Below, piece after piece: positions 1,434 through 56,408 of a stretch of 64,000 nucleotides of DNA. This stretch comes from an uncultured Thermoplasmata archaeon (lineage in GTDB: Archaea > Thermoplasmatota > Thermoplasmata > Halarchaeoplasmatales > Halarchaeoplasmataceae), in the NCBI GenBank assembly GCA_964394465.1, contig CAYMXS010000006.1:5836-69835 (forward strand). The letters run 5' to 3'. Each line of letters begins with the position of its first letter. The first letter of the stretch is position 1. Position numbers and translations under genes: made by a program. Under the pieces are notes generated by a model. The model saw only the letters and a program-made list of their open reading frames with translations, was not told the DNA's origin and searched no databases.

Positions 1434-1808
1434 ATGGAAAAAGATAAGATACTGGATGGAATAGAGCACGACCTGGAAGAACTGCCTGGTCGCTTAAAAC
1501 GTTTGAGAGAGGATATCGACTTGAACAGGCTGCCGCTGGAACAGAGGATCAGGCATCCGGCCCTTGAAGACATGGAACTACAGGACCTGTGGAAGGCGGT
1601 AAGATCCAACGGTCAGACGGTCCGACCTCACTTACTCTCTTCTTCCTCCTCTTTAGTTCTCTTTGATCTGCGGTGTATGAACAGAGATATCACCACTAAA
1701 GCAAGTACCGCTACTATCCCTATGATGATCAAAGCAGAACCGTCTTCATCCCCTTCAGAGGGCGTACCTGTTACCGTTGGACACTCACTGATATCTGAAC
1801 TTTTATAA
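1434..1808 (+). CDS. possible small protein; only the first ~65 aa look protein-like
   Basis: The N-terminal half (MEKDKILDGIEHDLEELPGRLKRLREDIDLNRLPLEQRIRHPALEDMELQDLWKAV) is charged and helical-looking. The rest is antisense to the TM helix and basic tail of the 1628..3790 gene and is low complexity. Confidence 0.2.
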   Translation: MEKDKILDGIEHDLEELPGRLKRLREDIDLNRLPLEQRIRHPALEDMELQDLWKAVRSNGQTVRPHLLSSSSSLVLFDLRCMNRDITTKASTATIPMMIKAEPSSSPSEGVPVTVGHSLISELL

Positions 1809-3790: not shown

Positions 3791-6700
3791 GGATATCAGT
3801 CTCCTTTTTCTTCAGTTTTTTGAGTTCTTCTTTTGCTCGTTTTTTACTTTCTTTTCGTTTCTTTTTCTTATCTTTATCCTTCTTTGGATTAACCGTACCT
3901 AAAATCAGGATGATCGCTCCAAGGCTCAGTATCGCAGTCAGGGCGTAAACCCAGACAGAGGATGCACTAGGATGGGTACCTTTGTCTTTATCATCATCTT
4001 CTACGTACACCTCAAAACTGGAGCTGCCGGTATTTCCCGCCTCGTCTTTTACCACCAGTTTGACGGTGTGATCCCCACCGCTTGTAAACCGATAGGTCGA
4101 TTTATTCCCCTCTATCTTTTCTCCATCTACATACCATATATACTGGGTTATGCCAATATTGTCAGATGACGATGTACCGTTTAGTAGAACTTCTTCACCT
4201 TTTTCCACTATGATATCCGTTCCCGCTCTGGCGATAGGGGCTTGCACATCCACAATTTCTTTACTGGATTTCTCACTTTTGGCCCAGTTAGAGGACGTAT
4301 CGACCGCAGATATCTTGTAGTAAAGTTCCCGTGCCCTAAAAGGTATGGATATGTCGGTCTCATAAGTCTTTTCATCCATAGGTTTCAAAGATCTGTTCAG
4401 CCTCCCTGAGACGTCCGTCCAGTATATCACATAGGCACGTTCTATATCGATATTATCTTCGATACCGACATTGAGATTGTAAAGTTCTCCTGTGCCGGGT
4501 GGTGATAATTCATCGGCTGAGAATGTAGGTGCATCGTTATCGATAACGTCGATTTCGATCGATTCAGATACTGTCCAGTAACCCGAGGTGTCCCGAGCTG
4601 AAACAGTATATTTCAACCGGGTTGCGTTGTATGGTACGTTTATATTTACCCTATAGTGGCCTTCGCCAACGTTTTTCAAACTCTTGTTCACATGATCTGT
4701 TACATCGGTCCAGTAATCCACATAAACATGTTCTATACCCTCGTTGTCACTCACGGTGGCGTTCAGAGTGTAGAAATCCCCTGTGGTGGGGTTTCCAGTC
4801 CTGTTAATCGAGATCCTTGGAGGGTTGATATCTCTTATCGCTGTAGAGAAAGGTCCTAGACTCGCCTCGTTGTAGGATACATCCAGTGCTAAGATCTTAT
4901 AGTGTATGTCTTCTTCGTCTTTTGGAACCTTTATTTTGAGCTCGTAATTGCTGTTTCTTACTGTATCCATGGTCCTGTTGTACTTTTTCTCGGGATCAGT
5001 CCAGTGAATGATCCGTACATCTCTGACCTCTATGTTATCAGTTACTTTAACGTCGAACGTGAAGTTCCTTCCCGCAACCGCCGAGTCGGGAGTGTTATCG
5101 GTTATCTGGGGCGGTTCGCCTTCTCTGTAGGGCTCTAATAAAGGCAGGTGGTCCATATCACTCGTTTGCGAGATCAGGTAAGGTGTATCGGCGAAGCCGT
5201 CGCTCCCCTCTTTGTTCTGTTTCGGGCCCGACCTTTTATCCATGTCTACATGGTCGGACCAGTAGTTACCTCCGGATGGATAAGTAGCGTTCCAGTGGTT
5301 GTTTCCTCCAGCCCGTACTTGTTCATCGTTATCGATGAAGTTGTTATGATATATTCTGTTATCTCTAGATGACGAGAGATGGATGCCTAGATGATTTTTC
5401 ATCACGTCGTTACCGGTGAAGACGTTATCCCTGCAGTGGTAGCCCTTTATGCCGACCTGGCTGTTATTGGAGATAACGTTATCGGCGATCGTATTATTTT
5501 GTGAATAGCCCATCAATATCCCGTTATCTTTTCCGCTGATATTTTGGTTTTCCACTGTTATGTTGCTGCAGTCTGCCAGTATAACTTCACCCGCATTTGG
5601 AGGCACATCTCCCCCGTTCTGATCTTTTAGATAATATATCGGTTTACCATATACAGTATTGGAACTAGTGATAGTATGGGAGTCCCAATGGGATTTATAG
5701 AAACCACCTTCTATATTTATGCTGCAATCTGGAAAAGTATTATTCTTCAACGTGGTGTTTACTGTATGTCGCAACTCTAGTCCTTCCTCGCTGCCCAAAA
5801 TAGAGTTACCTATGAGCCTGTTTCCACCAGATGCTAAAAGCGATATACCTAATGGATTATCAATCAATTCGTTATCGACGATCAAGTTGTCTTCTGGGCC
5901 TTCTCTAAAATAAATGCCCGTGTCTTTATTGCGCAAAAAAGTATTATTAGAGATTGTGTTGCCATCAGAATATTGGTGGATGGTGAGCCCTTTGTAATTC
6001 TGTTTTAGTTGATTACCAGCGATCCTATTATCGTGAGGGTAATAGGCTGCAGGGGCGAACGGCGACGACTCGATTTTGACCCCATGAAAGTTTCCAGTTA
6101 TTTTGTTATCGACTATAGTATTGTTGTAACTTTCACGTTTAAATAGGATACCTTCGCCAAGGCCTTCGGTCTCGTTAGTAGCACTCAGGGAATTATTATA
6201 GACTCTGATATTAGTCGAGTCCCTGATTATCATCCCGATAAAGTTATCGACCATCGTGTTATTGGAAAGATTTCCATTTTTAGAGTCGTAGAGATAGATC
6301 CCAGATTCGTCATGACCTGTGGCGTTCGATAGATGACAATATCTTATGGAAAAGTGATCGGTGACGTTTCCGATGTATATACAGAACCCGCTTTCTCTTC
6401 CATCTATCTTATAGTCCTCTATGATCCAGGGAGCTTCTTCACTGCCGTTCCCTTCCCACCCTTCCTGTTCAGCGGTCTTCGCGAAATCCACGTTATTATC
6501 TATCCGGATAGGTTCGTGGGTCTGGTAGTCATCTGCTGTTATTTTTTCTCTGAGGCCCATTTGGTTATCTTCTAAGTGGGGAGAAAATTTGAAACCATCG
6601 ATGTCATTACCGGTTTTAGTTGAAAAAAGATTTTGGTTCGTATCTTGAACATGAAAATCTAGACCACCAGAATGATTGCTATTAAAATCTTTCTCTTTCA

Positions 6701-6914
6701 GAGATAAATTCGAGCAATGGTTATGCATTATATCTCTATCAAGGCTGTCTGACTTCGGATTAATAGTTTCCTTGTATTTACTATCGCCGTTTTTATCTAA
6801 TTCTCCATCACAATCATATTCAGAATCACATCTCTCTAAGTTGAGTAATCCAAACGCTCCATTAAATATCAATAGAGTGACGATCAGTCCTGCAAATACC
6901 GATTGAGCTTTCAT
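3780..6914 (-). CDS. secreted right-handed parallel beta-helix (PbH1) repeat protein with Ig-like and PKD domains and C-terminal TM anchor
   Basis: Multiple PbH1-type repeats (e.g. NNTIADNVISNNSQVGIKGYHCRDNVFTGNDVMKNHLGIHLSSSRDNRIYHNNFIDN). Four Ig-like repeats (VSDNEGIEHVYVDYW). A PKD-like domain (ARAGTDIIVEKGEEVLLNGTSSSDN..YIWYVDGE). TM plus Lys-rich tail. Overlaps the next gene by 11 nt. Confidence 0.8.
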   Translation of the reverse strand: MKAQSVFAGLIVTLLIFNGAFGLLNLERCDSEYDCDGELDKNGDSKYKETINPKSDSLDRDIMHNHCSNLSLKEKDFNSNHSGGLDFHVQDTNQNLFSTKTGNDIDGFKFSPHLEDNQMGLREKITADDYQTHEPIRIDNNVDFAKTAEQEGWEGNGSEEAPWIIEDYKIDGRESGFCIYIGNVTDHFSIRYCHLSNATGHDESGIYLYDSKNGNLSNNTMVDNFIGMIIRDSTNIRVYNNSLSATNETEGLGEGILFKRESYNNTIVDNKITGNFHGVKIESSPFAPAAYYPHDNRIAGNQLKQNYKGLTIHQYSDGNTISNNTFLRNKDTGIYFREGPEDNLIVDNELIDNPLGISLLASGGNRLIGNSILGSEEGLELRHTVNTTLKNNTFPDCSINIEGGFYKSHWDSHTITSSNTVYGKPIYYLKDQNGGDVPPNAGEVILADCSNITVENQNISGKDNGILMGYSQNNTIADNVISNNSQVGIKGYHCRDNVFTGNDVMKNHLGIHLSSSRDNRIYHNNFIDNDEQVRAGGNNHWNATYPSGGNYWSDHVDMDKRSGPKQNKEGSDGFADTPYLISQTSDMDHLPLLEPYREGEPPQITDNTPDSAVAGRNFTFDVKVTDNIEVRDVRIIHWTDPEKKYNRTMDTVRNSNYELKIKVPKDEEDIHYKILALDVSYNEASLGPFSTAIRDINPPRISINRTGNPTTGDFYTLNATVSDNEGIEHVYVDYWTDVTDHVNKSLKNVGEGHYRVNINVPYNATRLKYTVSARDTSGYWTVSESIEIDVIDNDAPTFSADELSPPGTGELYNLNVGIEDNIDIERAYVIYWTDVSGRLNRSLKPMDEKTYETDISIPFRARELYYKISAVDTSSNWAKSEKSSKEIVDVQAPIARAGTDIIVEKGEEVLLNGTSSSDNIGITQYIWYVDGEKIEGNKSTYRFTSGGDHTVKLVVKDEAGNTGSSSFEVYVEDDDKDKGTHPSASSVWVYALTAILSLGAIILILGTVNPKKDKDKKKKRKESKKRAKEELKKLKKKETDIHDK

Positions 6915-19476: not shown

Positions 19477-19582
19477 CGCCGAGAGAGGGATTTGAACCCT
19501 CGAGGTGCAAGGCACCACGAGATTTACGGTCCCCTGAAGGGGAACTCCAATCTCGCGCCGTACCAGGCTAGGCTATCTCGGC
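19477..19582 (-). tRNA. tRNA-Ser (anticodon GGA) with a 21-nt intron at the canonical 37/38 position
   Basis: Manual fold of the minus strand. Acceptor stem GCCGAGA/TCTCGGC, discriminator G. D-arm GCC-TAGCCTGGTAC-GGC. Anticodon stem CGAGA/TCTCG with loop TTGGAG. Intron TTCCCCTTCAGGGGACCGTAA, with its own CCCC/GGGG hairpin. Long variable arm TGGTGCCTTGCACCTC. T-arm GAGGG-TTCAAAT-CCCTC. No encoded CCA. Confidence 0.75.
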
Positions 19583-41751: not shown

Positions 41752-42567
41752 ATGATAGGAAGAGAGAACAAGAGAAAGGTCAACCTTTTAGGCGAAGCTG
41801 GTGTGGGCAAAACTTCTTTGATACTTCGTTTCGTTAAGAACGTCTTCGGAGAAGAATACCTGAAGACCATAGGAACAAATATCTACACGAAGAAGGTCCC
41901 TGTCACCGGCTCCGAGGTGAAGCTAGTTCTTCATGACATAATGGGGGATACGGATTTTGACACCGTGCGTGAGACCGCATTCCAAAAATCCACCGGTGCC
42001 ATAGCCGTGGCGGACTGCCTGAGAAAGGAGACATTGGATAGACTGGTTGAGGACTGGCTGCCCATGTATAAGGAGGCTTCTGTAGACAATGCCCCTGTCA
42101 TCCTTGCCGTAAATAAGGTGGATCTAGATGACCAGGAGATCACTGAAGAACTGGTAGCTAACGATTGGCAGGTCTATTTCGACAGCGTCTTCTACACCTC
42201 GGCCAAGACCGGCAAGAACGTGGAAGATATGTTCAACGAGCTGGGATTCAGAACCATATATAACAAGCCCTCCTTGGCCAGGAAGGGAGAGGATATGATA
42301 ACGATGGATAGAGTGATAGACGAACCAAGAGGATTGATGTCCGCCCTTCTTACTTACGCTTCCGTCAAGGGTGATATGCCCTATTCTACTAGAGAAGAGA
42401 TCTTCGAGAAGAGCGGGATCGACAAGTTTTCCCTAGACGAAGGTATATCGGAGAAAGAAGTATTGACTTTTGCCGATGGTCTTATAGAGTGGTATGAGGA
42501 GGACGGGGATCCAGATTCGGCTTCAGCCACTGAAAGCCTGGTCGAAAAATATGAAAAAGATTCTTAG
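41752..42567 (+). CDS. Ras-superfamily small GTPase with ~100-aa C-terminal extension (paralog 1)
   Basis: G1 GEAGVGKTS, switch-I Thr (KTIGT), G3 DIMGD (Asp where Gln is canonical), G4 NKVD, G5 TSAK. C-terminal extension shared with paralog 2. Confidence 0.8.
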   Translation: MIGRENKRKVNLLGEAGVGKTSLILRFVKNVFGEEYLKTIGTNIYTKKVPVTGSEVKLVLHDIMGDTDFDTVRETAFQKSTGAIAVADCLRKETLDRLVEDWLPMYKEASVDNAPVILAVNKVDLDDQEITEELVANDWQVYFDSVFYTSAKTGKNVEDMFNELGFRTIYNKPSLARKGEDMITMDRVIDEPRGLMSALLTYASVKGDMPYSTREEIFEKSGIDKFSLDEGISEKEVLTFADGLIEWYEEDGDPDSASATESLVEKYEKDS

Positions 42568-42588: not shown

Positions 42589-43398
42589 ATGATAGGTAAC
42601 GAGAAGAGAAGAAAGGTGAACCTACTAGGTGAAACCAAAGTGGGCAAGACCGCCTTGGTACTCCGTTTCGTGGAAGACATATATGGAGAGGAATATCTGA
42701 AGACTATAGGCACGAACGTTTATACCAAGAAGGTCCCGGTCACGGGGTCGATGGTGAAGTTGGTCATACACGATATCATGGGTGATACCGACTTCGAGAC
42801 CGTTCGGGAGGTGGCCTTTCAGAAGTCCACTGGAGCCATTGCGGTAGTTGATCACAAGAGAGAAGAAACGTTGGACAGGCTGATCGAGGATTGGCTGCCC
42901 CTGTATAAAAAAGAAGCTGTGGACAACGCACCTATCATCTTGGCTATCAACAATCTAGAGGACGAGGATATAAGAGAAGAGGTAGTTAGTGACGAGGTGC
43001 TATTCTATTTCGATTCAGTATTCTATACATCTGCAAAAACGGGAAAAAACGTGCAGGATGTTTTCAGAGAACTCGGATTCAACTGCATCTATAACCAGCC
43101 CTCTATGATAAGGAAAGGGGAAGAATTCGTGGTCAAAGATAAAACACTAGAGACCCCAAAGAAGTTGTTATCCGCCCTCCTCACCTACGCCTCAGTCAAG
43201 GGGGACATGCCCTACTCGACCAGAGAAGAGATATTCGAAGAGAGCGGGATAGATAAATTCTCATTGGATGAAAAGATCTCGGAGGAGGAGGTTTTGTCAT
43301 TCGGTAATGGACTCATCCGATGGTATGAAAAAGATGGGGATGACGGATCCGCCTCCGCCACTAGTGATCTGATCGGAAAATATGAGAGAGAGTCCTAG
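42589..43398 (+). CDS. Ras-superfamily small GTPase paralog 2 with degenerate G4 motif
   Basis: G1 GETKVGKTA, G3 DIMGD, G5 TSAK, but G4 reads NNLE instead of NKxD. About 70% identical to paralog 1 including the C-terminal extension (LLTYASVKGDMPYSTREEIFE.SGIDKFSLDE). Confidence 0.75.
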   Translation: MIGNEKRRKVNLLGETKVGKTALVLRFVEDIYGEEYLKTIGTNVYTKKVPVTGSMVKLVIHDIMGDTDFETVREVAFQKSTGAIAVVDHKREETLDRLIEDWLPLYKKEAVDNAPIILAINNLEDEDIREEVVSDEVLFYFDSVFYTSAKTGKNVQDVFRELGFNCIYNQPSMIRKGEEFVVKDKTLETPKKLLSALLTYASVKGDMPYSTREEIFEESGIDKFSLDEKISEEEVLSFGNGLIRWYEKDGDDGSASATSDLIGKYERES

Positions 43399-43413
43399 AG
43401 GATTAGATACGAA

Positions 43414-46400
43414 CTAATCCTCTTCTTGGAATATCTGCTTCAGCTTCTCTCTTGCACCTCTGAGCTTCTCCATGTCTCCGTCCCAGTCCTCGAGTTCTTC
43501 TTCATACTCATCCTCAATATCCTCTATAGTTTCCTGTATGCTGCCGATCTCTTCGTCGGTCAGTTCTCCAGAGTATTTGACCGCTATGTACACGTACTCC
43601 CCTCTCTTGATCACTATCTTGTTGTCCTGGAACTCCAGTTTGTCTATGCTCCAGTCGTCTTCATCCTTGAATGAGTCCTTGATGAAGTTCTGTATGGCTG
43701 TCAGCATGCCCGCCATGACGTCCTCATCCATATCCGGCCTTAGCCTTCTCGTCTCATGGGCTATCAGCATGGCATCGTTCCCTATGAGGAATATCTCGTC
43801 GATGATGGCCTCTTCTTCCTCTTCACCGAGATATTGTGTATAGACGTAAGCGGCGGCTCCGGTTGACCCTATGATGATGAGGAATAAAAGCCAAAGGTAT
43901 CCATCTTGAGAGGATGAAGAAGCTGATCCTTTCGATTCGTCCACCCCAAAGGTCTGCTCTCCTGAACTGTTCCAGTTGTCAGATGAATCCTTTACGCAGA
44001 TGGTATAACTGTAGGTACCAGGATGGGAGTACGTCGAATTGTAGTACCATCTTTCTTCCGTCAACGATTTCATACTCTCATTGCGATGGGTTCCATCCGG
44101 ATAAATCAGATTGATCCAGACATCTTCTATCTCATGATTATCCCTGACCTCTGCCGTGATATTGACATGGTCTCCGGTTTCCTGTGGGTCGGGGGATACG
44201 AACATGTTCGATATGCCCGGTCTTATCGTATCTTCTATCCTGAAGTAGTGCCCACCGGAGGTGTTCCAGTTTGATGAAGCATCTCTCGCTAGGATCTCAT
44301 AACCATACATCCCGGTCTTGCTGTAAGTAGAATTGTAGTACCATAGTTCTCCCGGAGTAGAGTTCATACTGATATTTCGGCGGTCTCCTCCAGGTAGGTC
44401 TATGACCAGCCAGATCCCACTTATCTCTCCCTCATGAGTCACCTCGGCTGTAATATTCACATGTCCTCCGGTATCTTGAGGTTCTGGAAAAGCCACTACG
44501 CTCTGTATGTTCGGAGGCGTTTTTTCCTCAATCTCGAAGGAACGAGCGGTAGAACTGTTCCAGTTGTTCGACGGGTCTTTCGCTACGATCGTGAAACCAT
44601 GAATCCCAGAGGTGTTGTAAGTGGAGTTATAGTACCATATATCTCCTGACCCTGATTCCATACTCTTATTCTGGATATGTCCATCGGGACCGGTGATATT
44701 TACCAAGACATGGCTGACATGATCATCATCAGTTACAGCAGCGGTGATATTCACATGATCTCCTGGCTCTTGGGTTCCAGGCGTACTTACCACGTCTGAT
44801 ATCTCTGGAGCTTCGATATCTTCTATCTCAAAGGAATGGACGATAGTTGCATTCCAGTTATCCCCTGTATCTTTGGCGCAGATCGTATAATCATGTACAC
44901 CAAGCTCATCGTAGTGGGAGTTATAGTACCATCCATCATACGGTCCAGGTTCCATACTACTATTTTGTTCATCTCCTCCTGGAAAGACGATGTTTATCCA
45001 TACCGCTTCCAACTGATCGTTATCGGTTATATCGGCAGTTATATTGATGTGTCCTCCCTTCCCCTGCTTGTTTGGCAAGGCTGAAACGTTCGAGATCTCT
45101 GGTTCGATAGAGTCCTCGATCACGAAGGTATGGCCGCTTGAACTGTTCCAATTATTTACGGTATCGTCCGCCCAGATGGCATAACTGTACTCCCCCAGTT
45201 CGGTATAGGTGGAGTTATAGTACCATGAATTCTCCTGGGATGGGGCCATGGTTAGATTATAATGATCACCGTCGGGGTCGGTGATATTGATCCATACCTC
45301 GCCGACCCGATGGTTATCGGTCACGCTAGCGCTTATATTGACATATCCATTTAGCCCTTGAGTCTCAGGTGAGTTGACCACATCCGATATCACAGGGGCT
45401 TCGATATCCACTATGTCAAAAGACCGCACCTCAGTGGTGTTCACGTTACCAGATGTATCGTTCGCCCAGATGGTATATTCATAGGTCCCCGGTACGGTAT
45501 AAGTCGAATTATAGAACCACAGAGATACCATGTTTGATACCATACTCCTGTTCTGATGGGTACCGTCTGGCTTGGTTATGTTCACCCAGACCTCTCCGAC
45601 TTCATGATCGTCAGTTATGTTAGCGCTTATATTGACGTAACCTTCAGTTTCCTGAGGATCGGGCGAAACCATGACCTCATTTATCTCTGGAGCGGTACTA
45701 TCGACGACCAAAAAGTTATGACCACTCGAACTTGCTTGGTTACCCCAGGTATCGTTCGCCAGGACAGTAAAATCATATTTACCCAATTCGGAATAGGTAG
45801 AGTTGTAGTACCACATATTATATTGTGATTTTGTCATATTCTTTATGATATGTTCTCCGTCCGGATAGGTTATATTGACCCATACTTTTTTGAGCTCAGA
45901 AGTATCGGTGACCTTTGCAGTTATGTTTACGGTTCTTCCCACGTTCTGTTCCTGAGGTGTCACCTCTACATTGTTGATATCTGGCGGATCAGTTTCCATG
46001 ATGGTAAAATCATGGCCGCTGGAGGTGTTCCAGTTCTTAGAGGTATCATTCGCCCAGATGGTATAATCATAGGTCCCTAACTCGGTATAGGTCTCGTTAT
46101 AGTACCATCGATCACCGGGCCCCTTGTCCATACTCACGTTTTGATGATTACCGCCTGGGTAATAGATATCTACCTTTACTTTTTTGAGCTTATGGTTATC
46201 TGTTATATTGGCTGTGATATTGACATACTCCCCTATCACTTGTACATTCGGCACAGCCTTTACATCCGATATCTTGGGAGATATGGTATCATTTATCTCG
46301 AAGGTCTGACCTGTGGAGCGATTCCGGTTGTTAGATGTGTCATTCGCCCATATCCTATACTCATAACTCCCTGGCACATAGTAGGTAGAATTGTGATACC

Positions 46401-49400
46401 ATCCATCCTCCAACCCTGAGTTCATGCTCACATTTTGATAGGTCCCGTTAGGACCCGTTATATTGACCCAGACCTCGTCCAACTGATGGTTATCGGTTAT
46501 ATCAGCCGTTATATTGACATATCTCCCAGGTTCTTGAGGATCAGGTGAGGCACTGATGTTGTCTATCTCTGGTTCGAGGGTATCCTCTATCAAAAATGTC
46601 TCCTCCCGGGAGTGGTTCAGATTGCCAGCGGTGTCATTCGCGTAGATCACGTAGTGATAGGTACCTAAGACGGTATAATTGGATTCAAAATACCATTTAT
46701 CCCCTGTACCGGGATCCATACTCACATTTTGGTACATACTGTTCGGATGGGTGATGTTAAGCCAGACCTCGTCAACTTGAGCGTTATCGGTTATATCAGC
46801 CGTTATATTCACGGGCCCTCCGGTCTTCTGTTGATTAGGATCGGCTGAAACGTTCGATATCTTTGGGTCTATCGGGTCCACTATCTCGAAGGTATGGGCA
46901 CCTGTTGCGGTCGTATCCCAGTTATTAGATGTATCGTTCGCAGCGATGACGTAATAGTGGATGCCCACACTGTGATAGGTGGAGTTATAATACCATTGCC
47001 CACCCTGACCCTGGACCATACTATTATTTACATAACCACCACTAGGATAGGATATATTGACACAGACTTTCCCCAGGTTATAGTTATCTGATACATTTGC
47101 GGTGATATTCACATGTCCACCGGCCTGTATATAATCAGGAGAGGCCATAACATCCGATATCTGAGGCGGAGATAGATCCACTATCTCAAAATAGTGTACA
47201 TCTGAGATGTTCCAGTTGTTAGAATCGTCCTGAGCTAAAATCCTATAGGTGTAATTCCCCAAAAGAGTATAATTTGACTCGTGATACCATTCATCCCCTA
47301 TACCTGGGTCCATACTAACGTTCTCGAAAGTACTGTTCGGATAGGTGATGTTGACATAGACTTCATTCACATGAGCGTTATCAGTCACATTGGCTGTGAT
47401 ATTGACATATCTGTCCGTCTCCTGTGGGTCCGGCTTGGCATCCACATCTGTTATCTCAGGAGGTGCATCATCGTATATGGTGATGGTAACGTTCGCGGTA
47501 TCGGCCTTGCCGGCCCCGTCCTCTATCTTGTACGTGTAATTGTCCGTACATGAATAGTTAGTGTTAGGTTTATATTGTATCTCCCCTGTCGTATGATTGG
47601 TTGTGGCTATAGAACCATCAGATGGAGGGGTTATGATTGTTATAGACGTATAATTCAGATCGTCATTATCGTCAACATCGTTGATAGTAACATTCGTCCA
47701 CACATCGCCTCCCGCGGCACAGCTGTCCGAATCGTCTTTAGCCAAGGGCGCATCGTTTACTTCGTTAACGGTGATGTTTACCGTAGCTATATTAGATGTG
47801 ATGCCATCGGTGTCATCGACCGTATAATTGAAACTGTCCAAACCAGAATAGTTGGTGTCCGGCATATATCTTATCTCGCCAGTAGTACCATTTACCGATG
47901 TTGAGCCATGGGCTGGTCCGCTGGTTACCGTCACCGTGGAGGGATCAAGCGAGCCTTCCGAGGCAGTATCATTGGCAAGCACATCGCACAAAACTGCTGT
48001 ATCTTCGTCAGTTATATTTTGATCGTCATTGGCCGTCGGAGGGGCCTTTATGGTGAAATTTTTCTGGCTGGAACTGTTCCAGTTATCTGAGGTGTCATTC
48101 GCCCAGACAGTATAATTACAGGTGCCTAGGGAAGTGTATGTAGAATTGTAGTACCACAGATCATCTGTAGACCGGTTCATACTCACATTCTGATGACTGC
48201 TGTCAGGATAAGTGATGTTTACAGAGACTTTTTTTACTTCGTGAATGTCATTTACCTGTGCAGTTATATTCACCCATCCTCCAATCCCTTGGGGATCCGG
48301 TAAAGCTGATACGTTTGATACCTTCGGAGCGGTGGTATCTTCGATTTTAAAATTATGAATAGAAGTTTTCGCCCAGTTATCCGAGGTGTCGTTCGCCCAT
48401 ATAATATAATCATAAGTCCCCGTTGAAGTATAAGTTGAGTTGTAGTACCACAGACCACTCCCTCCCAGAGACATGCTTTCGTTTTGAGAAGTGCCATTTG
48501 GATGAGTGATATTGACCCATGCTTTGCCCACTTCATGATTATCTTCTACATCGGCACTGATATTGACATATCCTCCCGTTTCTTGAGTAGATGGACCCGT
48601 AACGTTATAGATGGTCGGTGCGATGGTGTCTTCTACATCATACCAATTACTGGAAGAACTATTCCAGTTGTTCGATGTATCGTTCGCCTCAATCGAATAG
48701 TATATACCCGTAGCGTTATTCCAGACAGAAATGTTTAGCCAGTAATTGGTTGAGGGCTTCATACTTTGGTTAAACCACTTGCCGTATCCGCCTGATGACT
48801 CCAATTTATATCTTAACCAGACCGTGTCAACTTCAGCATTATCCGTGACGTTAGCCGTGACGTTGAAAGATCCTCCGGTTGTTGGCGTTCTAGTGGTGGT
48901 ATCTTGAATCTCTGGCTTAGCTGTATCGTTCGTTTTAACGCTTATATCGTCAGCACGGAGAGAGCAATTTACCTGCTGAGAGCCTGAGGTGATGACGTCA
49001 ACATATAATTCCACGCTCACCTTATTGACTTTCCCCACTGGTGTATAATCCTTGTTCAGAGGGTGAAAATTATTCCAACCCGTGGACCCTTCTCCTAAAT
49101 CATCCCAGTAGGTAGATTTACTGTATATCTGCTTCCACCCAATAGTAGTATCGTTGACTGAGACTCTGGCAGTAGCTGTGATATTTTCTGCATCATACTC
49201 CGTAATATCATTTATTGTGCAATTGAAAGCTCCGTTCACGATGACTTCTTTTTTGATATCACCGATGCTTTGGGTCCAATTTCCCATTTGAGTGGCATCT
49301 GATTCTAAAGAAACCTCTACATATGTCTCGATACAGCCACTTCCATCACTGGTATTGGTGTGAGTGCTATCATAACGGTTACCATTTTCATCAGGTGATC

Positions 49401-49590
49401 CCTGACTATACTCTGATAAAGACCAGGATTCATATGAGCCATTGAATCCTCCATTCTCCACAAGCTCATACCTGACTGTATCCGCCTGTACCTCCTCTGT
49501 ACAGTTTATGCTAACGAGAGCGAAGAGTAACAGAACGGTCAATAGTATGGCTATCTTTCTTTTCATCGTCCTCAACAGTTTTATTTTCAC
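43414..49590 (-). CDS. giant (2058 aa) surface protein: signal peptide, N-terminal jelly-roll-like domain, ~15 tandem ~95-aa Ig-like repeats plus 2 cadherin-like modules, single TM, cytoplasmic Roadblock/LC7-like domain
   Basis: Repeat consensus P.I.NV...P..Q..GG.VNITA.VTDN..V..VWVNIT.P.G..QN.SM......WYYNSTY...GTY.Y.IWANDTS.NWN.S....F.I.D occurs 15 times. Cadherin-like segments carry NDAP. TM YLWLLFLIIIGSTGAAAYVYTQYL. The tail (IFLIGNDAMLIAHETR ... DVMAGMLTAIQNFIKDSF ... WSIDKLEFQDNKIVIKRGEYVYIAVKY) resembles MglB/Roadblock. Confidence 0.85.
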   Translation of the reverse strand: MKIKLLRTMKRKIAILLTVLLLFALVSINCTEEVQADTVRYELVENGGFNGSYESWSLSEYSQGSPDENGNRYDSTHTNTSDGSGCIETYVEVSLESDATQMGNWTQSIGDIKKEVIVNGAFNCTINDITEYDAENITATARVSVNDTTIGWKQIYSKSTYWDDLGEGSTGWNNFHPLNKDYTPVGKVNKVSVELYVDVITSGSQQVNCSLRADDISVKTNDTAKPEIQDTTTRTPTTGGSFNVTANVTDNAEVDTVWLRYKLESSGGYGKWFNQSMKPSTNYWLNISVWNNATGIYYSIEANDTSNNWNSSSSNWYDVEDTIAPTIYNVTGPSTQETGGYVNISADVEDNHEVGKAWVNITHPNGTSQNESMSLGGSGLWYYNSTYTSTGTYDYIIWANDTSDNWAKTSIHNFKIEDTTAPKVSNVSALPDPQGIGGWVNITAQVNDIHEVKKVSVNITYPDSSHQNVSMNRSTDDLWYYNSTYTSLGTCNYTVWANDTSDNWNSSSQKNFTIKAPPTANDDQNITDEDTAVLCDVLANDTASEGSLDPSTVTVTSGPAHGSTSVNGTTGEIRYMPDTNYSGLDSFNYTVDDTDGITSNIATVNITVNEVNDAPLAKDDSDSCAAGGDVWTNVTINDVDDNDDLNYTSITIITPPSDGSIATTNHTTGEIQYKPNTNYSCTDNYTYKIEDGAGKADTANVTITIYDDAPPEITDVDAKPDPQETDRYVNITANVTDNAHVNEVYVNITYPNSTFENVSMDPGIGDEWYHESNYTLLGNYTYRILAQDDSNNWNISDVHYFEIVDLSPPQISDVMASPDYIQAGGHVNITANVSDNYNLGKVCVNISYPSGGYVNNSMVQGQGGQWYYNSTYHSVGIHYYVIAANDTSNNWDTTATGAHTFEIVDPIDPKISNVSADPNQQKTGGPVNITADITDNAQVDEVWLNITHPNSMYQNVSMDPGTGDKWYFESNYTVLGTYHYVIYANDTAGNLNHSREETFLIEDTLEPEIDNISASPDPQEPGRYVNITADITDNHQLDEVWVNITGPNGTYQNVSMNSGLEDGWYHNSTYYVPGSYEYRIWANDTSNNRNRSTGQTFEINDTISPKISDVKAVPNVQVIGEYVNITANITDNHKLKKVKVDIYYPGGNHQNVSMDKGPGDRWYYNETYTELGTYDYTIWANDTSKNWNTSSGHDFTIMETDPPDINNVEVTPQEQNVGRTVNITAKVTDTSELKKVWVNITYPDGEHIIKNMTKSQYNMWYYNSTYSELGKYDFTVLANDTWGNQASSSGHNFLVVDSTAPEINEVMVSPDPQETEGYVNISANITDDHEVGEVWVNITKPDGTHQNRSMVSNMVSLWFYNSTYTVPGTYEYTIWANDTSGNVNTTEVRSFDIVDIEAPVISDVVNSPETQGLNGYVNISASVTDNHRVGEVWINITDPDGDHYNLTMAPSQENSWYYNSTYTELGEYSYAIWADDTVNNWNSSSGHTFVIEDSIEPEISNVSALPNKQGKGGHINITADITDNDQLEAVWINIVFPGGDEQNSSMEPGPYDGWYYNSHYDELGVHDYTICAKDTGDNWNATIVHSFEIEDIEAPEISDVVSTPGTQEPGDHVNITAAVTDDDHVSHVLVNITGPDGHIQNKSMESGSGDIWYYNSTYNTSGIHGFTIVAKDPSNNWNSSTARSFEIEEKTPPNIQSVVAFPEPQDTGGHVNITAEVTHEGEISGIWLVIDLPGGDRRNISMNSTPGELWYYNSTYSKTGMYGYEILARDASSNWNTSGGHYFRIEDTIRPGISNMFVSPDPQETGDHVNITAEVRDNHEIEDVWINLIYPDGTHRNESMKSLTEERWYYNSTYSHPGTYSYTICVKDSSDNWNSSGEQTFGVDESKGSASSSSQDGYLWLLFLIIIGSTGAAAYVYTQYLGEEEEEAIIDEIFLIGNDAMLIAHETRRLRPDMDEDVMAGMLTAIQNFIKDSFKDEDDWSIDKLEFQDNKIVIKRGEYVYIAVKYSGELTDEEIGSIQETIEDIEDEYEEELEDWDGDMEKLRGAREKLKQIFQEED

Positions 49591-53153: not shown

Positions 53154-56100
53154 ATGACGGTGAGTCAAAAAGTGATGGCTATCGGACTAGCGGCTGTTTT
53201 CCTTATCGGTTCACTGTCAGGAGCAGGTAAGTATCTTAGAACGCAAGAAGCAGAATGTGTGGATAAGGTCGATATAGATGTCACAACCAGCAGAGATACA
53301 GCCATCCAGAAAGTAGCGGATGGGGAGAAGGATATACTCCTCCAGAGTTTAGGGATGAAAAATTATGCTGATGTATCCGACGATCTCAAAGACAAATTGG
53401 GGTTATGGACTGGTAGTGGAGAATATTATAACTTGCTACTCAACCCAGCGCACGAACCAGATGCATCTACGCCGGACGGTGAAAGCTGGAAATACGTCTG
53501 TCAGGACGATGAAGACGGCAATAAAATGTTCAATCCCTTCGCAGTTAAAAAATTCCGTTACGCCATGAACTTTCTGGTAAACAGGAAGAAAATAGGTAGT
53601 GATATTTTTGAAGGCTATGCGGAACCACGTTATTTTCCTGTAAAAACCGGAACTGGACCTTATGAAGACTATTTCGAAGCGATAAAAGAGGAACACGGGA
53701 TAACCAGCACGGGTAACCTCCAAAAAGCGAAAGAAATGATCTATAACGTCTTGGAAAAAGCGAATGATGACATGGTTGAAGGAGATATAAGGTCTCCAAA
53801 AGACCATCACGGGGACTACTGGCAGTACAAGCCTCCGGGGAAGGCATGGAAAAATATGACAGTTCAAGGAGTCTTTGGGAATGATTTCACAGAAAAAAAG
53901 ATGGAACAATACGTTGAAAATCTGTTAGAAGATGAAATAGGAATAAAGGTGATACCCAATCCGTTTGACACAACGATGGGACCTCCTAATGTATACTCCG
54001 GAGAATATGACGATCCCCTTGATGATTATGGGTGGAGCTATTATATAGAGGGATGGCATCCCTATGGAAATACCTACTATCCAGGTGGTAGGGCTGTCGA
54101 GAGATACTGCCCTTCTCCATCCTATGGAGCCATGCCTAATCTTGTAGAAGGAGAAACACATTACCAATATGAGAACGAAACGTTGGTCAGGCTGGGAAAG
54201 TCCCTCTATAACGGCAAGATAAACACAGTCGACGAGTACTGGAACAAGCTAACCAGACTCGTGGAAGCTGGGTTGGACGAGTCGATCAGAGTCTTCCTTA
54301 GTACTGAGAAGGAATATTATGTGTACAACGATGACAAAGTAATGGGTGCGGCAACGGACGTAGTTACTGGCTGGTCTGACGTGTTCGGGCCGAGAACGAT
54401 CCGGACAAACGATGGAAACCTATCGGCAACGGTCTTTGATATCGATCTTTCCGAGTACCGTTGGAACTATATTGGTGGTTCTGAAGAGGGATTCAGTGAC
54501 CGTATCCGAAAGATGGTTCGTGGAGTCGCTGGAGCTACTCATCCTCAAACAGGAAAACCAATGGGAGTACGAGAAAGTTGGACCGTAACAAAGGATTACA
54601 CATGGGAAGAGGACGGAAATCTGACAAAGAAAATAGAGGTCCCATCTAGCGCCGTGGTCTATAAAGCGAACCAAACTGATAAACGATGGGAGCAAGTCGG
54701 CACAGGTAAGAAATCCGCGGTGAAAGTCACTTATGACGTGGATCTGGGCAGATGGCACGACGGCCATGAGATGACCGTTCGGGATATCATGGCTTATTAC
54801 GCTTTCAGTAAGGACATGTGCTACGACCTCGGCGAAGAAGGGGATTATTATAACCAGCTATATGCTTGGCAACGAAAGGCATTCTACGATGATATCGTCG
54901 CTACCAGATGGAACCAGGAAGAAAATACATTTACGATCTGGGGAGACTATACCTTCCCGGCAAAAAGTAAGATAGGTGAGTATTTCACCGTATGGCCCAT
55001 CCAACCGTATCAAATATACGAGGCGACAGAGCAGCTGGTCATAGAGAGCGACCTTGTACCCGAGGGAAGCGAGCCCTATGCTTGGGATAATTATGGCGAA
55101 GGTAACTTGGTCCACTACCTGAGCGAGTCGCAGGGGTCGGACATAAAAACCGTCCTCCAGAACATGAAATCGGCGGATTGGATGCCTCCGTACTTGAAAA
55201 AGGAGAACAATGCACCGATCAATATCTCCCAGGCAGAATTCGAGAGTCAAATAGACGATATAATCGGGTTCTATGATGAATACCACCATCTCTACGATTC
55301 GAACGGTCCATTCAAGATCACCGATTACAACTCGACTACGCACGAGATGAGCATGAAAAGAGCCAGTGGATATCCATATCCTATGGATCACTGGGAGGAG
55401 AAGTTGTCCATAGAGAAGTTCACTTTCTCTACAGATATACAGACATCCGATGAGATAGTAAGAGGAGATGATCTAACAGTCGAGGTCGGGGCTTTGATAG
55501 ATGCCGACTATCCAATAGACGAGGATAGAGACTTGCCCCCGGGTACTGAAGCAAACATCACCCTGAGCAACATGGTGACGAGTGAGAAGGCGAAAAGAGT
55601 GACCGAGCCAACGATAGGAAACCGGTCTATCTCTACAGTGATCGAGACGGAAGACATGGTCCCGGGAACGTATCGATTGACTATAGAGGCAAAGACACCT
55701 GGCGGTTGGACCCGAAGTATCGAGAAAACTGTAAAGCTCTTAGAACCAGATAAATTTCTGGTTAAAAGTCTCACCGTCGATGGAGATAATGAACAGACAC
55801 AGGTAAACCAATTCGTCAATACTACGATCAAAACTAGAGTGCTAAATACATATAAGAGTGATCAAACAGCGAAGTTGGAAGTCGACGGTTCTACGATAAA
55901 AGAAAAGACAGTGAAAGCCGGAGAGACCGAGAACTTTTCTGCTACATATCGTTTCACCACCACGGGCGAGCATACCGTAAAGGTAGGTAACAGGTCCGTT
56001 GTCGTATCAGTGGTCAAAGGAGGTCTCGATATCACCGGTCTCCACCTTGAAAACGAGAAGATAGAGAAAGGTAGATCGGTATCCATCTCGGCGAACATCG

Positions 56101-56408
56101 AAAACGGTCGGTCTTCGCCAGTGAAAGTGAAGGTGCTGATAAAGGATGAGACCGGAGAAGTCGTAGACAGCAAGCTCTTTACGGTCGATGCGGGAGATAC
56201 TACCAGTATATCCTGGAGCAGAACTTTCAAAGAGGAAGGCGAATACACGGTCGAGCTAGGTGATCAATCACAGAGTCTAGAAGTCAAAGAGGATATTGAT
56301 AGGGAAGAAGAGCCGGACGAAGATTGGATGCTGATGCTCGGCTTGACCGCGGTGATGGGTGTTATCATCGCCATCGTGTTTTCGTGGGTATATAGAGAAG
56401 AAAGATAG
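53154..56408 (+). CDS. membrane-anchored family-5 solute-binding-protein-like domain fused to CARDB/Ig-like domains
   Basis: N-terminal TM/signal. FRYAMNFLVNRKKIGSDIFEGYAEP matches the Opp/Dpp-type SBP signature region. C-terminal CARDB-like repeats (ITGLHLENEKIEKGRSVSISANIENGRSSPVKVKV). TM plus REER tail. Confidence 0.6.
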   Translation: MTVSQKVMAIGLAAVFLIGSLSGAGKYLRTQEAECVDKVDIDVTTSRDTAIQKVADGEKDILLQSLGMKNYADVSDDLKDKLGLWTGSGEYYNLLLNPAHEPDASTPDGESWKYVCQDDEDGNKMFNPFAVKKFRYAMNFLVNRKKIGSDIFEGYAEPRYFPVKTGTGPYEDYFEAIKEEHGITSTGNLQKAKEMIYNVLEKANDDMVEGDIRSPKDHHGDYWQYKPPGKAWKNMTVQGVFGNDFTEKKMEQYVENLLEDEIGIKVIPNPFDTTMGPPNVYSGEYDDPLDDYGWSYYIEGWHPYGNTYYPGGRAVERYCPSPSYGAMPNLVEGETHYQYENETLVRLGKSLYNGKINTVDEYWNKLTRLVEAGLDESIRVFLSTEKEYYVYNDDKVMGAATDVVTGWSDVFGPRTIRTNDGNLSATVFDIDLSEYRWNYIGGSEEGFSDRIRKMVRGVAGATHPQTGKPMGVRESWTVTKDYTWEEDGNLTKKIEVPSSAVVYKANQTDKRWEQVGTGKKSAVKVTYDVDLGRWHDGHEMTVRDIMAYYAFSKDMCYDLGEEGDYYNQLYAWQRKAFYDDIVATRWNQEENTFTIWGDYTFPAKSKIGEYFTVWPIQPYQIYEATEQLVIESDLVPEGSEPYAWDNYGEGNLVHYLSESQGSDIKTVLQNMKSADWMPPYLKKENNAPINISQAEFESQIDDIIGFYDEYHHLYDSNGPFKITDYNSTTHEMSMKRASGYPYPMDHWEEKLSIEKFTFSTDIQTSDEIVRGDDLTVEVGALIDADYPIDEDRDLPPGTEANITLSNMVTSEKAKRVTEPTIGNRSISTVIETEDMVPGTYRLTIEAKTPGGWTRSIEKTVKLLEPDKFLVKSLTVDGDNEQTQVNQFVNTTIKTRVLNTYKSDQTAKLEVDGSTIKEKTVKAGETENFSATYRFTTTGEHTVKVGNRSVVVSVVKGGLDITGLHLENEKIEKGRSVSISANIENGRSSPVKVKVLIKDETGEVVDSKLFTVDAGDTTSISWSRTFKEEGEYTVELGDQSQSLEVKEDIDREEEPDEDWMLMLGLTAVMGVIIAIVFSWVYREER

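Follow-up and report, generated by a model that had tools for sequence, protein, structure and literature searches.

What could a giant archaeal surface protein do with a folded domain on the inner side of the membrane, and do the two Rab-like GTPase genes beside its own bear on the answer? The question comes from one locus in a 64,000-nucleotide stretch of DNA from an uncultured Thermoplasmata archaeon, analysed as a whole (the window). The initial annotation had read positions 43414-43910 as a transmembrane (TM) helix followed by a cytoplasmic Roadblock/LC7-like domain. Its coordinates are right, and the peptide that it quoted is the C-terminus of the open reading frame 43414..49590, whose stop codon occupies 43414-43416 on the minus strand (Table 1). 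A plus-strand reading of 43414-43910 was ruled out, its translation being full of stops. An alternative start, ATG 49566, yields 2050 aa, as in the public record P0002, which is 100% identical to the giant protein across the tail; GCA_905333475.1 carries the same gene call.

Hydropathy revealed only two hydrophobic segments in the giant protein. It has the features of a type-I single-pass protein: an N-terminal signal, one TM helix, a predicted extracellular N-terminal part and a cytoplasmic C-terminal part (hydropathy, sequons). The ectodomain contains 15 tandem Ig-like repeats of 98 aa each with a VNITA motif, resembling Pfam DUF4625 / GlgE_dom_N_S; three repeats are followed by two Big_9/cadherin-like domains (about 47461..48045) and then by 12 more repeats. 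All 117 NxS/T N-glycosylation sequons lie before the TM helix, with 0 in the tail of about 137 aa that follows it. This tail is acidic, with 44 D+E against 15 K+R.

Table 1 Features of the giant surface-protein gene and the adjacent GTPase genes (positions in the window)
Feature	Position	Strand	Basis or detail
Rab-like small GTPase G1, 271 aa	41752..42567	+	Pfam Ras 1.6e-29
Paralogous Rab-like GTPase G2, 269 aa	42589..43398	+	
Giant type-I membrane protein gene	43414..49590	-	2058 aa from GTG 49590
Signal-peptide-like hydrophobic segment, N-terminal (MKRKIAILLTVLLLFALVSINC...)	49498..49554	-	hydropathy scan
Ectodomain of giant protein	43900..49479	-	Pfam/NCBIfam profiles, sequon count
Single TM helix YLWLLFLIIIGSTGAAAYVYTQYL, aa 1898-1921	43828..43899	-	hydropathy
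Predicted longin-like cytoplasmic domain, aa 1927-2055	43426..43812	-	AF2 model, Foldseek
b1 (model element E9-17)	43780-43806	-	AF2 model
b2 (E22-27)	43750-43767	-	AF2 model
Conserved loop TRRLRPDMDED	43720-43752	-	
a1 (H36-53)	43672-43725	-	AF2 model
b3 (E63-67)	43630-43644	-	AF2 model
b4 (E70-76)	43603-43623	-	AF2 model
b5 (E80-87)	43570-43593	-	AF2 model
a2 (H92-114)	43489-43557	-	AF2 model
WDGD motif	43474-43485	-	
a3 (H120-135)	43426-43473	-	AF2 model

The annotation had also held that other surface proteins of the window end in a TM helix and a short tail, which makes the giant protein's tail distinctive. We found three such proteins, with tails of about 15 aa (1628..3790, minus strand), about 40 aa and K-rich (3780..6914, minus strand) and 7 aa (53154..56408, plus strand), and against these the giant protein does stand apart.

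The tail belongs to a large family. A word-indexed homolog search returned one match, and exhaustive HMMER was used instead; counted as 50%-identity clusters, it gave 3252 cluster representatives at E<=1e-3, 1146 of them reaching E<=1e-10. By these counts the tail is not a chance or low-complexity feature. Most members consist of an ectodomain, a TM helix and then the domain about 8 residues past the membrane. The TM helix was at the equivalent position in 117/151 family representatives, with a median of 8 aa to the first strand, b1, and in 81% of these 117 the domain ended <=30 aa from the C-terminus. Across the family, the flank of the TM helix towards the domain had a net charge of +0.50 vs -0.97 for the opposite flank (p=7e-8), although the window's own tail begins EEEEE rather than with basic residues. 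Sequon density per 100 aa was 2.47 in ectodomains vs 0 in the domain (p=4e-18). The domain is also found within TM-less AAA_16/TPR STAND NTPases, where it interrupts the stretch from Walker A to Walker B. Homologs of the tail are thus not solely extracellular: the TM helix follows the positive-inside pattern, the domain is free of sequons, and copies sit in cytoplasmic STAND NTPases. From charge, sequons and these NTPase copies, the tail domain faces the cytoplasm.

Next to the giant gene lie the genes for G1 and G2. The GTPase domain of G1 covers aa 1-170 (motifs GEAGVGKT, DIMGD, NKVD and SAK); it leads through a disordered linker into a four-helix C-terminal domain at aa 192-270 in an AF2 model built on an alignment of database homologs. 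Its best PDB sequence matches were Rab21/Rab35/Rab1/Sec4, and Foldseek matched it to Rab8/Rab4/Ypt7, with Ypt7 of the Mon1-Ccz1 longin-GEF complex among the top matches. A Rag-like reading, in which the C-terminal extension of G1 would be a Roadblock domain, was ruled out by the four-helix bundle of the model. G2 is 72% identical to G1 and has lost the NKxD motif (N--NLE). Some homologs of the pair are labelled 'Rab family GTPase [Thermoplasmata archaeon]' by NCBI. G2 is convergent with the giant gene, their stop codons 15 nt apart; because of this arrangement, G1/G2 are not co-transcribed with it. A 10-bp inverted repeat across both stop codons (43397-43423) was like those in shuffled sequences (z=-1.68). 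That G1/G2 abut the giant gene had escaped the annotation, and it is the strongest argument for the functional idea put forward there.

Is this adjacency particular to one locus? A search for related loci, seeded with 12 closer sequences, led to 80 GTDB loci, all of them in Thermoplasmatota. A GTPase gene lay <=1.5 kb from the domain gene in 21/80, and 24/30 of the Ras-like ORFs at these loci fell within that distance. Their density per 100 kb was 12.7 near domain genes vs 1.39 farther off, an enrichment of about 9-fold (binomial p=3e-8, a value that overstates independence, many linked loci being orthologous). The GTPase gene may be upstream, downstream, divergent or convergent. Looking outward from the GTPases, we found at two loci, L084 and L085, a 194-aa gene encoding two TM helices and the domain directly upstream of a long-class GTPase; this 194-aa protein with its GTPase of about 270 aa is a recurrent minimal two-gene module of anchor, domain and GTPase. 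Among the 151 closest representatives, a Rosetta-stone search for fusions of the domain to Ras found none. Genes for DUF835, a KaiC-like signalling domain that has become inactive (PMC5847659), lie close to domain genes at 7 loci, and in P0122 DUF835 is fused to the domain. Every recurrent association of the domain besides that with the GTPases is likewise with a P-loop or P-loop-derived protein. V4R (Bet3/TRAPPC3-related)-DUF835 proteins were seen in the same gene neighbourhoods. Neighbours encoding DUF92, a HAD hydrolase, ABC-2 and DUF885 were rejected as functional partners, since they look like lineage synteny.

By analogy with known platforms, the tail probably serves small GTPases as a docking or regulatory platform anchored in the membrane. 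A different reading takes the domain for a scaffold or oligomerisation module in the cytoplasm that works without a GTPase; it would gather or position surface proteins, or link them to other partners such as DUF835/iKaiC proteins or STAND NTPases, GTPase adjacency reflecting only a subset of its uses. No GTPase was in view at 59/80 loci (about 74%), and genomes hold several domain genes, so most copies are without a dedicated neighbouring GTPase. Some proteins carry 2-3 tandem copies in one chain, and in 4-TM forms two copies are 3 aa apart, which suggests self-association; the DUF835 associations fit as well, and some eukaryotic longins (SNAREs, adaptor sigma/zeta) are not GTPase regulators (PMC10933270). 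Against this reading stand the enrichment of Ras-like genes beside domain genes in many gene orders, the recurrence of the minimal module and the restriction of the remaining associations to P-loop or P-loop-derived proteins, and we regard it as rather unlikely.

What kind of platform the tail might be depends on its fold. AF2 gave five concordant models (pLDDT 88.6, pTM 0.83), in agreement with the annotation's picture of one TM helix and, behind it, a folded alpha/beta domain in the cytoplasm. In the model the elements run b-b-a-b-b-b-a-a, with no N-terminal helix. Among the 50 matches listed by Foldseek against the PDB, all were longin or Roadblock proteins. For this predicted query, longins (AP1/AP2 sigma, COPI zeta) aligned over their full length, with TMq 0.51-0.59 across 134-152 columns. 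Roadblock proteins (1y4o, 3l7h, 2zl1, 1veu, 1j3w, 3t12 and 9jq8; E 5e-4 to 2e-3) aligned over the core only, with TMq 0.38-0.47 across about 82-100 columns of about 138 residues; they included LC7, LAMTOR2/MP1, Thermus MglB (1j3w), the Rag CTD and Asgard Roadblock, and their solved structures superpose on the five-stranded antiparallel sheet and central helix of the tail model. The longin order is b-b-a-b-b-b-a-a, lacking an N-terminal helix and having a second C-terminal helix, whereas the Roadblock/LC7 order is a-b-b-a-b-b-b, with an N-terminal helix that packs on the sheet (PMC10933270 Fig. 7). Because of its modelled element order and the missing N-terminal helix, we assign the tail to the longin arrangement; in the model its topology is longin-type, not Roadblock.

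The proposal of a Roadblock/LC7-like domain with an MglB-like beta-alpha-beta-beta pattern therefore holds in part. Structure prediction returned the expected Roadblock/longin sandwich, and MglB 1j3w was matched; the order specific to Roadblock was absent, and the better, full-length matches were longins. The separate 'acidic coiled tail' described earlier dissolves in the model into the domain's own helices a2 and a3, joined by the WDGD motif, whose W is the family's sole invariant motif.

Could the tail nevertheless belong in the strict sense to the Roadblock/LC7 (MglB) family and work as a classical GAP of the MglB type? The adjacent GTPase genes and the Foldseek matches to MglB (1j3w, 3t12), LC7, LAMTOR and Asgard Roadblock would agree with this. 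However, the defining N-terminal helix is missing, and the 8 aa between TM helix and b1 leave no room for it; two C-terminal helices are present, in longin fashion, and the Roadblock matches cover just the core. At the sequence level, Robl_LC7 gave no match to the tail at E<=10, nor did it match the 42 family members at E<=0.01, and hhalign gave the family profile a probability of 0.4% against LAMTOR2. These points make a classical MglB-type GAP improbable. The same profile scored 1% against AP2 sigma2 (both query sequences were exact PDB matches). The tail had no match among Pfam, NCBIfam or PDB sequences, no Pfam/NCBIfam model matched it or 41 relatives, and sequence-profile searches of the PDB with the family gave no match. 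Literature searches found no description of the family, nor of a longin fold as a tail right after the TM helix of a type-I protein.

Conservation within the domain peaks in b1, b2, the TRRLKPDxD loop, a1 and the WDGD loop, and residues H25, D35, G68, G77, W116 and G118 are invariant or nearly so. Longin and Roadblock domains turn their single-helix face towards GTPases, as in the MglA-MglB and TRAPP-Ypt1 complexes. That the tail is an acidic, partly coiled-coil or disordered extension with no specific fold, on which AF2 was over-confident, is hardly credible: its 44 D+E in 138 residues and its lack of a match to any known family would suit such an extension, but thousands of homologs keep to one hydrophobic pattern and share residues that are the same, or nearly so, throughout, and the concordant, high-scoring models gave a coherent fold-search result.

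Returning to the GTPase platform, the gene, topology, family size, predicted fold, conservation and linkage to genes for GTPases and other P-loop proteins were all established by computation here; physical binding, an effect as GAP, GEF or scaffold, and the direction of signalling are inferred. The last 137 residues would fold into a compact domain that lies in the cytoplasm, directly against the membrane's inner face. There the tail may bind a Ras-superfamily GTPase, as do MglB, the Roadblock proteins of Ragulator and the longin subunits of Rab GEFs, its candidate partners being the adjacent G1 and G2. It would recruit the GTPase to the membrane, regulate its nucleotide state, or both. A GTPase switch would thus be coupled to a large glycosylated adhesin-like ectodomain, either outside-in, for signalling, or inside-out, to control the placement of surface proteins.

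How does this arrangement compare with known systems? The tail model shares its element order with longins (AP/COPI sigma/zeta; Bet5/Trs23 of TRAPP, Mon1-Ccz1 and DENN Rab GEFs; SRalpha SRX-SRbeta). The pairing of longins with Rabs in eukaryotic GEFs is established (PMC10933270) and is matched here by a Rab-like GTPase as genomic partner. In contrast, eukaryotic and Asgard longins have no detectable sequence similarity to the tail family; longin SNAREs run from longin to SNARE motif to TM helix, the reverse of the order seen here; and longin trafficking proteins are Asgard or eukaryotic, whereas the tail-domain loci examined are from Thermoplasmatota. The MglB/MglA system of Myxococcus and Thermus has in common with the tail the core of five-stranded sheet and central helix, as well as a small GTPase gene alongside. 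MglB, though, is soluble, has the N-terminal helix and matches Pfam Robl_LC7, while the tail is TM-anchored, lacks the helix and has no such match; the partner of MglB is MglA-like, and the tail's candidate partners are Rab-like. Ragulator (LAMTOR1-5)-RagA/C likewise offers a membrane-tethered Roadblock-superfold platform, and the window, too, has two paralogous GTPases side by side. Rag GTPases end in Roadblock domains and G1 in a four-helix bundle; Ragulator is anchored by lipidated LAMTOR1, the tail by the TM helix of its own polypeptide.

In the Streptomyces conservon, CvnA is a membrane histidine kinase, CvnB a Roadblock protein and CvnD a GTPase, alongside CvnC (PMC4316618). It resembles the giant-gene locus in that a prokaryotic membrane sensor is linked in the genome with a Roadblock-superfold protein and with a small GTPase. 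The conservon keeps sensor, Roadblock protein and GTPase separate and uses a histidine kinase, whereas here a sensor-like ectodomain and the platform form one chain, with no kinase. Single divergent Rab-like sequences, of the same lineage and kind as G1/G2, were noted in Thermoplasmatales and Aciduliprofundum by Surkont & Pereira-Leal 2016 (PMC4915359), where we found no partner protein described for them.

Longin and Roadblock platforms that pair with Ras-superfamily GTPases have a central role in eukaryotic membrane traffic and in bacterial polarity. To our knowledge, discussion of such platforms in archaea has dealt almost solely with Asgard lineages. The present analysis adds a very large family missing from Pfam and NCBIfam, comprising thousands of 50%-identity clusters. 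It places the predicted fold hard against the membrane, as the cytoplasmic tail of single-pass surface proteins, and it finds repeated linkage of tail-domain genes to Rab-like GTPase genes in Thermoplasmatota. Predicted fold and gene neighbourhoods together suggest a receptor-to-GTPase link in non-Asgard archaea. A broader idea, which we put forward tentatively and with more doubt than conviction, is that Thermoplasmatota own a widespread TM signalling system in which a longin-like domain wires receptor- or adhesin-like surface proteins directly to Rab-like GTPases, and that the components from which eukaryotic Rab-GEF platforms are built (longin, Bet3-like, Rab-like) may cooperate outside the Asgard-eukaryote lineage, as a prokaryotic pathway from receptor to small GTPase. 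Should the link prove physical, the orphan Rab-like GTPases of Thermoplasmatota would gain a function, and receptor-to-small-GTPase coupling would gain a prokaryotic model that is simple and open to testing. Such a link would also bear on the question whether the longin-Rab partnership is older than the Asgard-eukaryote lineage or was passed on by transfer.

The giant gene lies on the minus strand; 43414-43910, the interval assigned to the tail by the initial annotation, is indeed its 3′ end, and the plus-strand frame across it holds many stops. The protein has 2058 aa with a GTG start, or 2050 aa with the ATG at 49566, the version recorded in MAG GCA_905333475.1. A signal-like hydrophobic segment at the N-terminus is followed by an ectodomain in which two Big_9/cadherin-like domains interrupt a tandem series of 15 Ig-like repeats of 98 aa (Pfam DUF4625/GlgE_dom_N_S-like); repeat spacing is exactly 98-100 aa, with a VNITA motif in each. 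NxS/T sequons number 117 in the ectodomain (5.7 per 100 aa, the top density among the window proteins checked) and zero in the 137-aa C-terminal tail, which has 44 acidic versus 15 basic residues. The peptide quoted for this tail was exact, and it is distinctive as claimed: three other surface proteins in the window have only 7 to ~40 residues after their TM helix. Elsewhere in the window, a 106-nt tRNA match (Rfam, 45 bits) has no ARAGORN counterpart anywhere in the window; its length suggests an intron-containing archaeal tRNA.

Features of the window and of related loci (L numbers), with their positions
Feature	Locus	Position	Strand	Remark
G1, Ras-family GTPase gene	window	41752..42567	+	
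G2, Ras-family GTPase gene	window	42589..43398	+	
Giant gene (ORF)	window	43414..49590	-	
TM helix YLWLLFLIIIGSTGAAAYVYTQYL	window	43828..43899	-	single; aa 1898-1921
Ectodomain	window	43900-49479	-	very regular repeat array
Tail elements (AlphaFold2)	window			b1 9-17, b2 22-27, a1 36-53, b3 63-67, b4 70-76, b5 80-87, a2 92-114, a3 120-135
Inverted repeat	window	43397-43423		
tRNA	window	19477-19582	-	
Four-TM protein, two domain copies	L043	7080-8810	+	also P0012, P0032, P0041, P0067, P0096
Soluble 2171-aa protein	L055	2958-9473	+	three domain copies, CARDB, DUF5915
STAND-type NTPase (AAA_16 + TPR) with inserted domain	L052	7722-10670	+	also L073, L075, L076
STAND-type NTPase, same type	L079	1443-4145	+	
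STAND-type NTPase, same type	L048	1952-5005	-	
GTPase directly downstream of small 2TM-domain gene, same strand	L050, L057, L062, L065, L067, L074			also L036
Four consecutive genes, each ending in the domain, then long-class GTPase gene	L036	3-6419		485+, 317, 200, 724 aa
GTPase(s) directly upstream of gene for ~1400-1950-aa protein	L024, L037, L046, L053, L054, L059, L063, L064, L068, L069			
GTPase divergent from domain gene	L020, L029, L079			
GTPase convergent with domain gene	L017, window			
Long Rab-like GTPase, short GTPase, V4R-DUF835 operon	L086	8001-10334		
Long Rab-like GTPase, short GTPase, V4R-DUF835 operon	L087	8001-10329		
DUF835 near domain gene	L001	4551-5117		
DUF835 near domain gene	L002	9361-9873		
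DUF835 near domain gene	L012	8999-9496		
DUF835 near domain gene	L022	1432-1923		
DUF835 near domain gene	L020	204-1118	-	
DUF835 near domain gene	L029	2054-2977	-	
DUF835 near domain gene	L060	3379-8796	+	class-I tRNA-synthetase-like protein extended by HHH, TPR, DUF835

The tail matched nothing in Pfam, NCBIfam or the PDB sequences, and a word-indexed protein search returned a single relative. An exhaustive HMMER search, run over 1.84 billion cluster representatives, gave 3252 proteins at E<=1e-3; of these, 1146 also passed E<=1e-10, and 39 passed E<=1e-30. None of 42 aligned family members had a meaningful match among Pfam models, and the family profile matched no PDB sequence. A literature search found no description of the family, which may carry an arCOG or InterPro label. 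In GTDB species genomes, at least 571 matches were confirmed, and the 80 best of these were all from Thermoplasmatota (Methanomassiliicoccales, other Thermoplasmata and DHVE2/Aciduliprofundum).

In 117 of the best 151 proteins, a hydrophobic helix ends a median of 8 residues before strand b1; in 81% of these 117, no more than 30 residues separate the end of the domain from the C-terminus. The region upstream ranges from 0 to >2500 residues, and we therefore take variable ectodomain, TM helix and domain as the standard layout. Minority layouts are small proteins of ~190-230 aa that combine the domain with a two-helix membrane hairpin, proteins with four TM helices and a pair of domain copies 3-19 residues apart, soluble ~2000-aa proteins with two or three copies, and a TM-domain-DUF835 fusion in one chain (P0122). 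In STAND NTPases, the domain sits as an insert between Walker A (GEAGIGKS/T) and Walker B (LLLVLEDIHWAD), and TPR repeats come next. The close-set copies of the four-TM proteins suggest a (pseudo)dimeric functional unit, as in Roadblock/longin pairs.

A signal peptide followed by one TM helix places the tail in the cytoplasm. Family-wide, the 12 residues flanking the TM helix carry a charge of +0.50 on the domain side vs -0.97 on the other (Wilcoxon p=7e-8), and sequon density per 100 aa is 2.47 in ectodomains vs 0 (median) in the domain (p=4e-18). Some proteins lacking a TM helix contain the domain too, embedded in cytoplasmic NTPases. The data speak clearly against homologs of the tail being extracellular only. 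The window tail is atypical for the family in beginning with EEEEE rather than basic residues.

An AlphaFold2 model of the tail, built with a 42-sequence alignment, reached a pLDDT of 88.6 and a pTM of 0.83 (all five models >=84.5). Among the 50 matches listed, Foldseek against the PDB returned longin and Roadblock superfold proteins only. The longin matches were AP1/AP2 sigma and COPI zeta (E from 1.2e-4, TMq 0.43-0.59, up to 152 columns); the Roadblock matches were dynein LC7, LAMTOR2/MP1, Thermus and Myxococcus MglB, MglC, Rag C-terminal domains and Asgard Roadblock proteins (E 5e-4 to 2e-3, typically 82-100 aligned columns). The domain thus very probably adopts the longin/Roadblock superfold. 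Tran et al. define variants of this superfold (PMC10933270, Fig. 7): LC7-type proteins lack a C-terminal helix, and longins lack the N-terminal helix and have a second C-terminal helix in its place. By this definition, the predicted order of elements is the longin arrangement. The gap between membrane and b1 leaves no room for an N-terminal helix, and a2 and a3 are joined by a WDGD loop whose W116 is the sole invariant residue of the family; conservation is concentrated in b1, b2, the b2-a1 loop (TRRLKPDxD), a1 and the WDGD loop.

The Roadblock/LC7-like tail of the initial annotation is thus upheld for the predicted superfold and not for the arrangement. True Roadblock/LC7 membership has two defining marks, a profile match and an N-terminal helix, and the tail shows neither; the reading that it works like MglB survives this. 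The residues set apart as an acidic coiled tail are a2 and a3 of the predicted fold, and a non-folded acidic tail is in practice excluded by family conservation and the AlphaFold2 model.

Directly beside the giant gene's 3′ end lie G1 and G2, two paralogous GTPase genes (72% identical) that are convergent with it, the stop codons being 15 nt apart. Across these stop codons runs a perfect inverted repeat of 10 bp (loop of 7 nt); its folding energy was like that of shuffles (dG -15 kcal/mol, z=-1.68). Both GTPases are Rab-like by sequence and predicted fold: the best PDB sequence matches were Rab21, Rab35, Rab1, Sec4/Ypt1 and a Thorarchaeota Rab (E ~1e-19), the fold matches Rab8, Rab4, Rab10, Sec4 and Ypt7 from its Mon1-Ccz1 complex, and some homologs carry the NCBI label 'Rab family GTPase [Thermoplasmata archaeon]'. 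Each has a ~100-aa C-terminal extension, predicted by AlphaFold2 as a disordered linker and a four-helix domain, not as a Rag-type Roadblock domain. Both lack the switch-II glutamine, with DIMGD where nearly all related GTPases have DxxGQ. In G2, the guanine-specificity motif NKxD is lost too (N--NLE), and this protein may be G1's degenerate or pseudo-GTPase partner.

Gene linkage of the domain to such GTPases is strong. Across 80 related loci (902 kb) we counted 30 Ras-like ORFs. Of these, 24 (from 21 loci) are no more than 1.5 kb away from a domain-bearing gene, and for 21 ORFs the distance is at most 600 nt. Their density per 100 kb was 12.7 beside domain genes vs 1.39 farther off (binomial p=3e-8, which overstates independence because many linked loci are orthologous). 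Gene order varies among loci, and adjacency kept through such rearrangements argues for selection and against inherited synteny. In a reciprocal look-up, four long-class GTPases served as starting points. One syntenic pair (L084, L085) has a 194-aa 2TM-domain gene directly upstream of the GTPase (family profile E ~1e-42); the other (L086, L087) has the long GTPase, a short GTPase with a weak Gtr1_RagA match and a V4R-DUF835 gene in a row.

DUF835, which Galperin et al. (PMC5847659) place among the output domains of archaeal response regulators as an inactivated KaiC-like one, is encoded no more than ~1 kb from domain genes in 7 of the 80 loci. In two of these (L020, L029), a GTPase-DUF835 pair is divergent from the domain gene, the GTPase carrying a ~40-aa insertion. 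The synthetase-like gene of L060 lies just downstream of a gene for a zinc-ribbon and longin-like-domain protein, and at L079 a TPR-GTPase fusion gene adjoins, divergently, the STAND NTPase gene. Lineage-synteny-like cases aside, all recurrent associations of the domain are with P-loop or P-loop-derived proteins. They fit a view of long standing, in which members of the Roadblock superfamily regulate NTPases (Koonin and Aravind 2000, as cited in PMC4316618).

Given a cytoplasmic domain close to the membrane, its predicted longin/Roadblock superfold and its gene linkage to Rab-like GTPases, we consider it reasonably likely that the domain is a platform for a GTPase. The tandem copies within one chain point to a probable dimer, and the domain would offer its single-helix face for docking; the GTPase would be held at the membrane and/or altered in its nucleotide state, linking its switch to the adhesin-like ectodomain. 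Candidate modes are GAP, GEF or pure scaffold; a GAP is hinted at by the conserved TRRLKP arginines and by the lack of the catalytic glutamine in G1/G2. Less likely, in our view, is a role in scaffolding or oligomerisation that does not involve a GTPase. In its favour, about three quarters of loci have no adjacent GTPase, and not all longin domains are GTPase regulators; against it stands the clustering of Ras-like ORFs beside domain genes.

The closest known systems to such a GTPase platform are the longin platforms of Rab GEFs and adaptor sigma/zeta subunits, MglB-MglA, Ragulator-Rag and SRX-SRbeta; the actinobacterial conservon is a prokaryotic precedent for a membrane sensor, a Roadblock-fold protein and a small GTPase (PMC4316618). 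The present family differs in lacking sequence similarity to catalogued families, in its fusion to single-pass surface proteins as their cytoplasmic tail, in its putative Rab-like partners and in its lineage, Thermoplasmatota, for which the accessible text of PMC4915359 describes isolated Rab-like sequences only and no partner. V4R is a prokaryotic relative of TRAPPC3/Bet3 (PMC10933270), and its operons with GTPases at L086 and L087 indicate that Bet3-like, Rab-like and longin-like parts are all present in these archaea. The minimal two-gene module, a 2TM-domain gene beside a GTPase gene, has no ectodomain; this suggests that the core role is to recruit the GTPase to the membrane or to regulate it, and ectodomains would be added as input or output modules.
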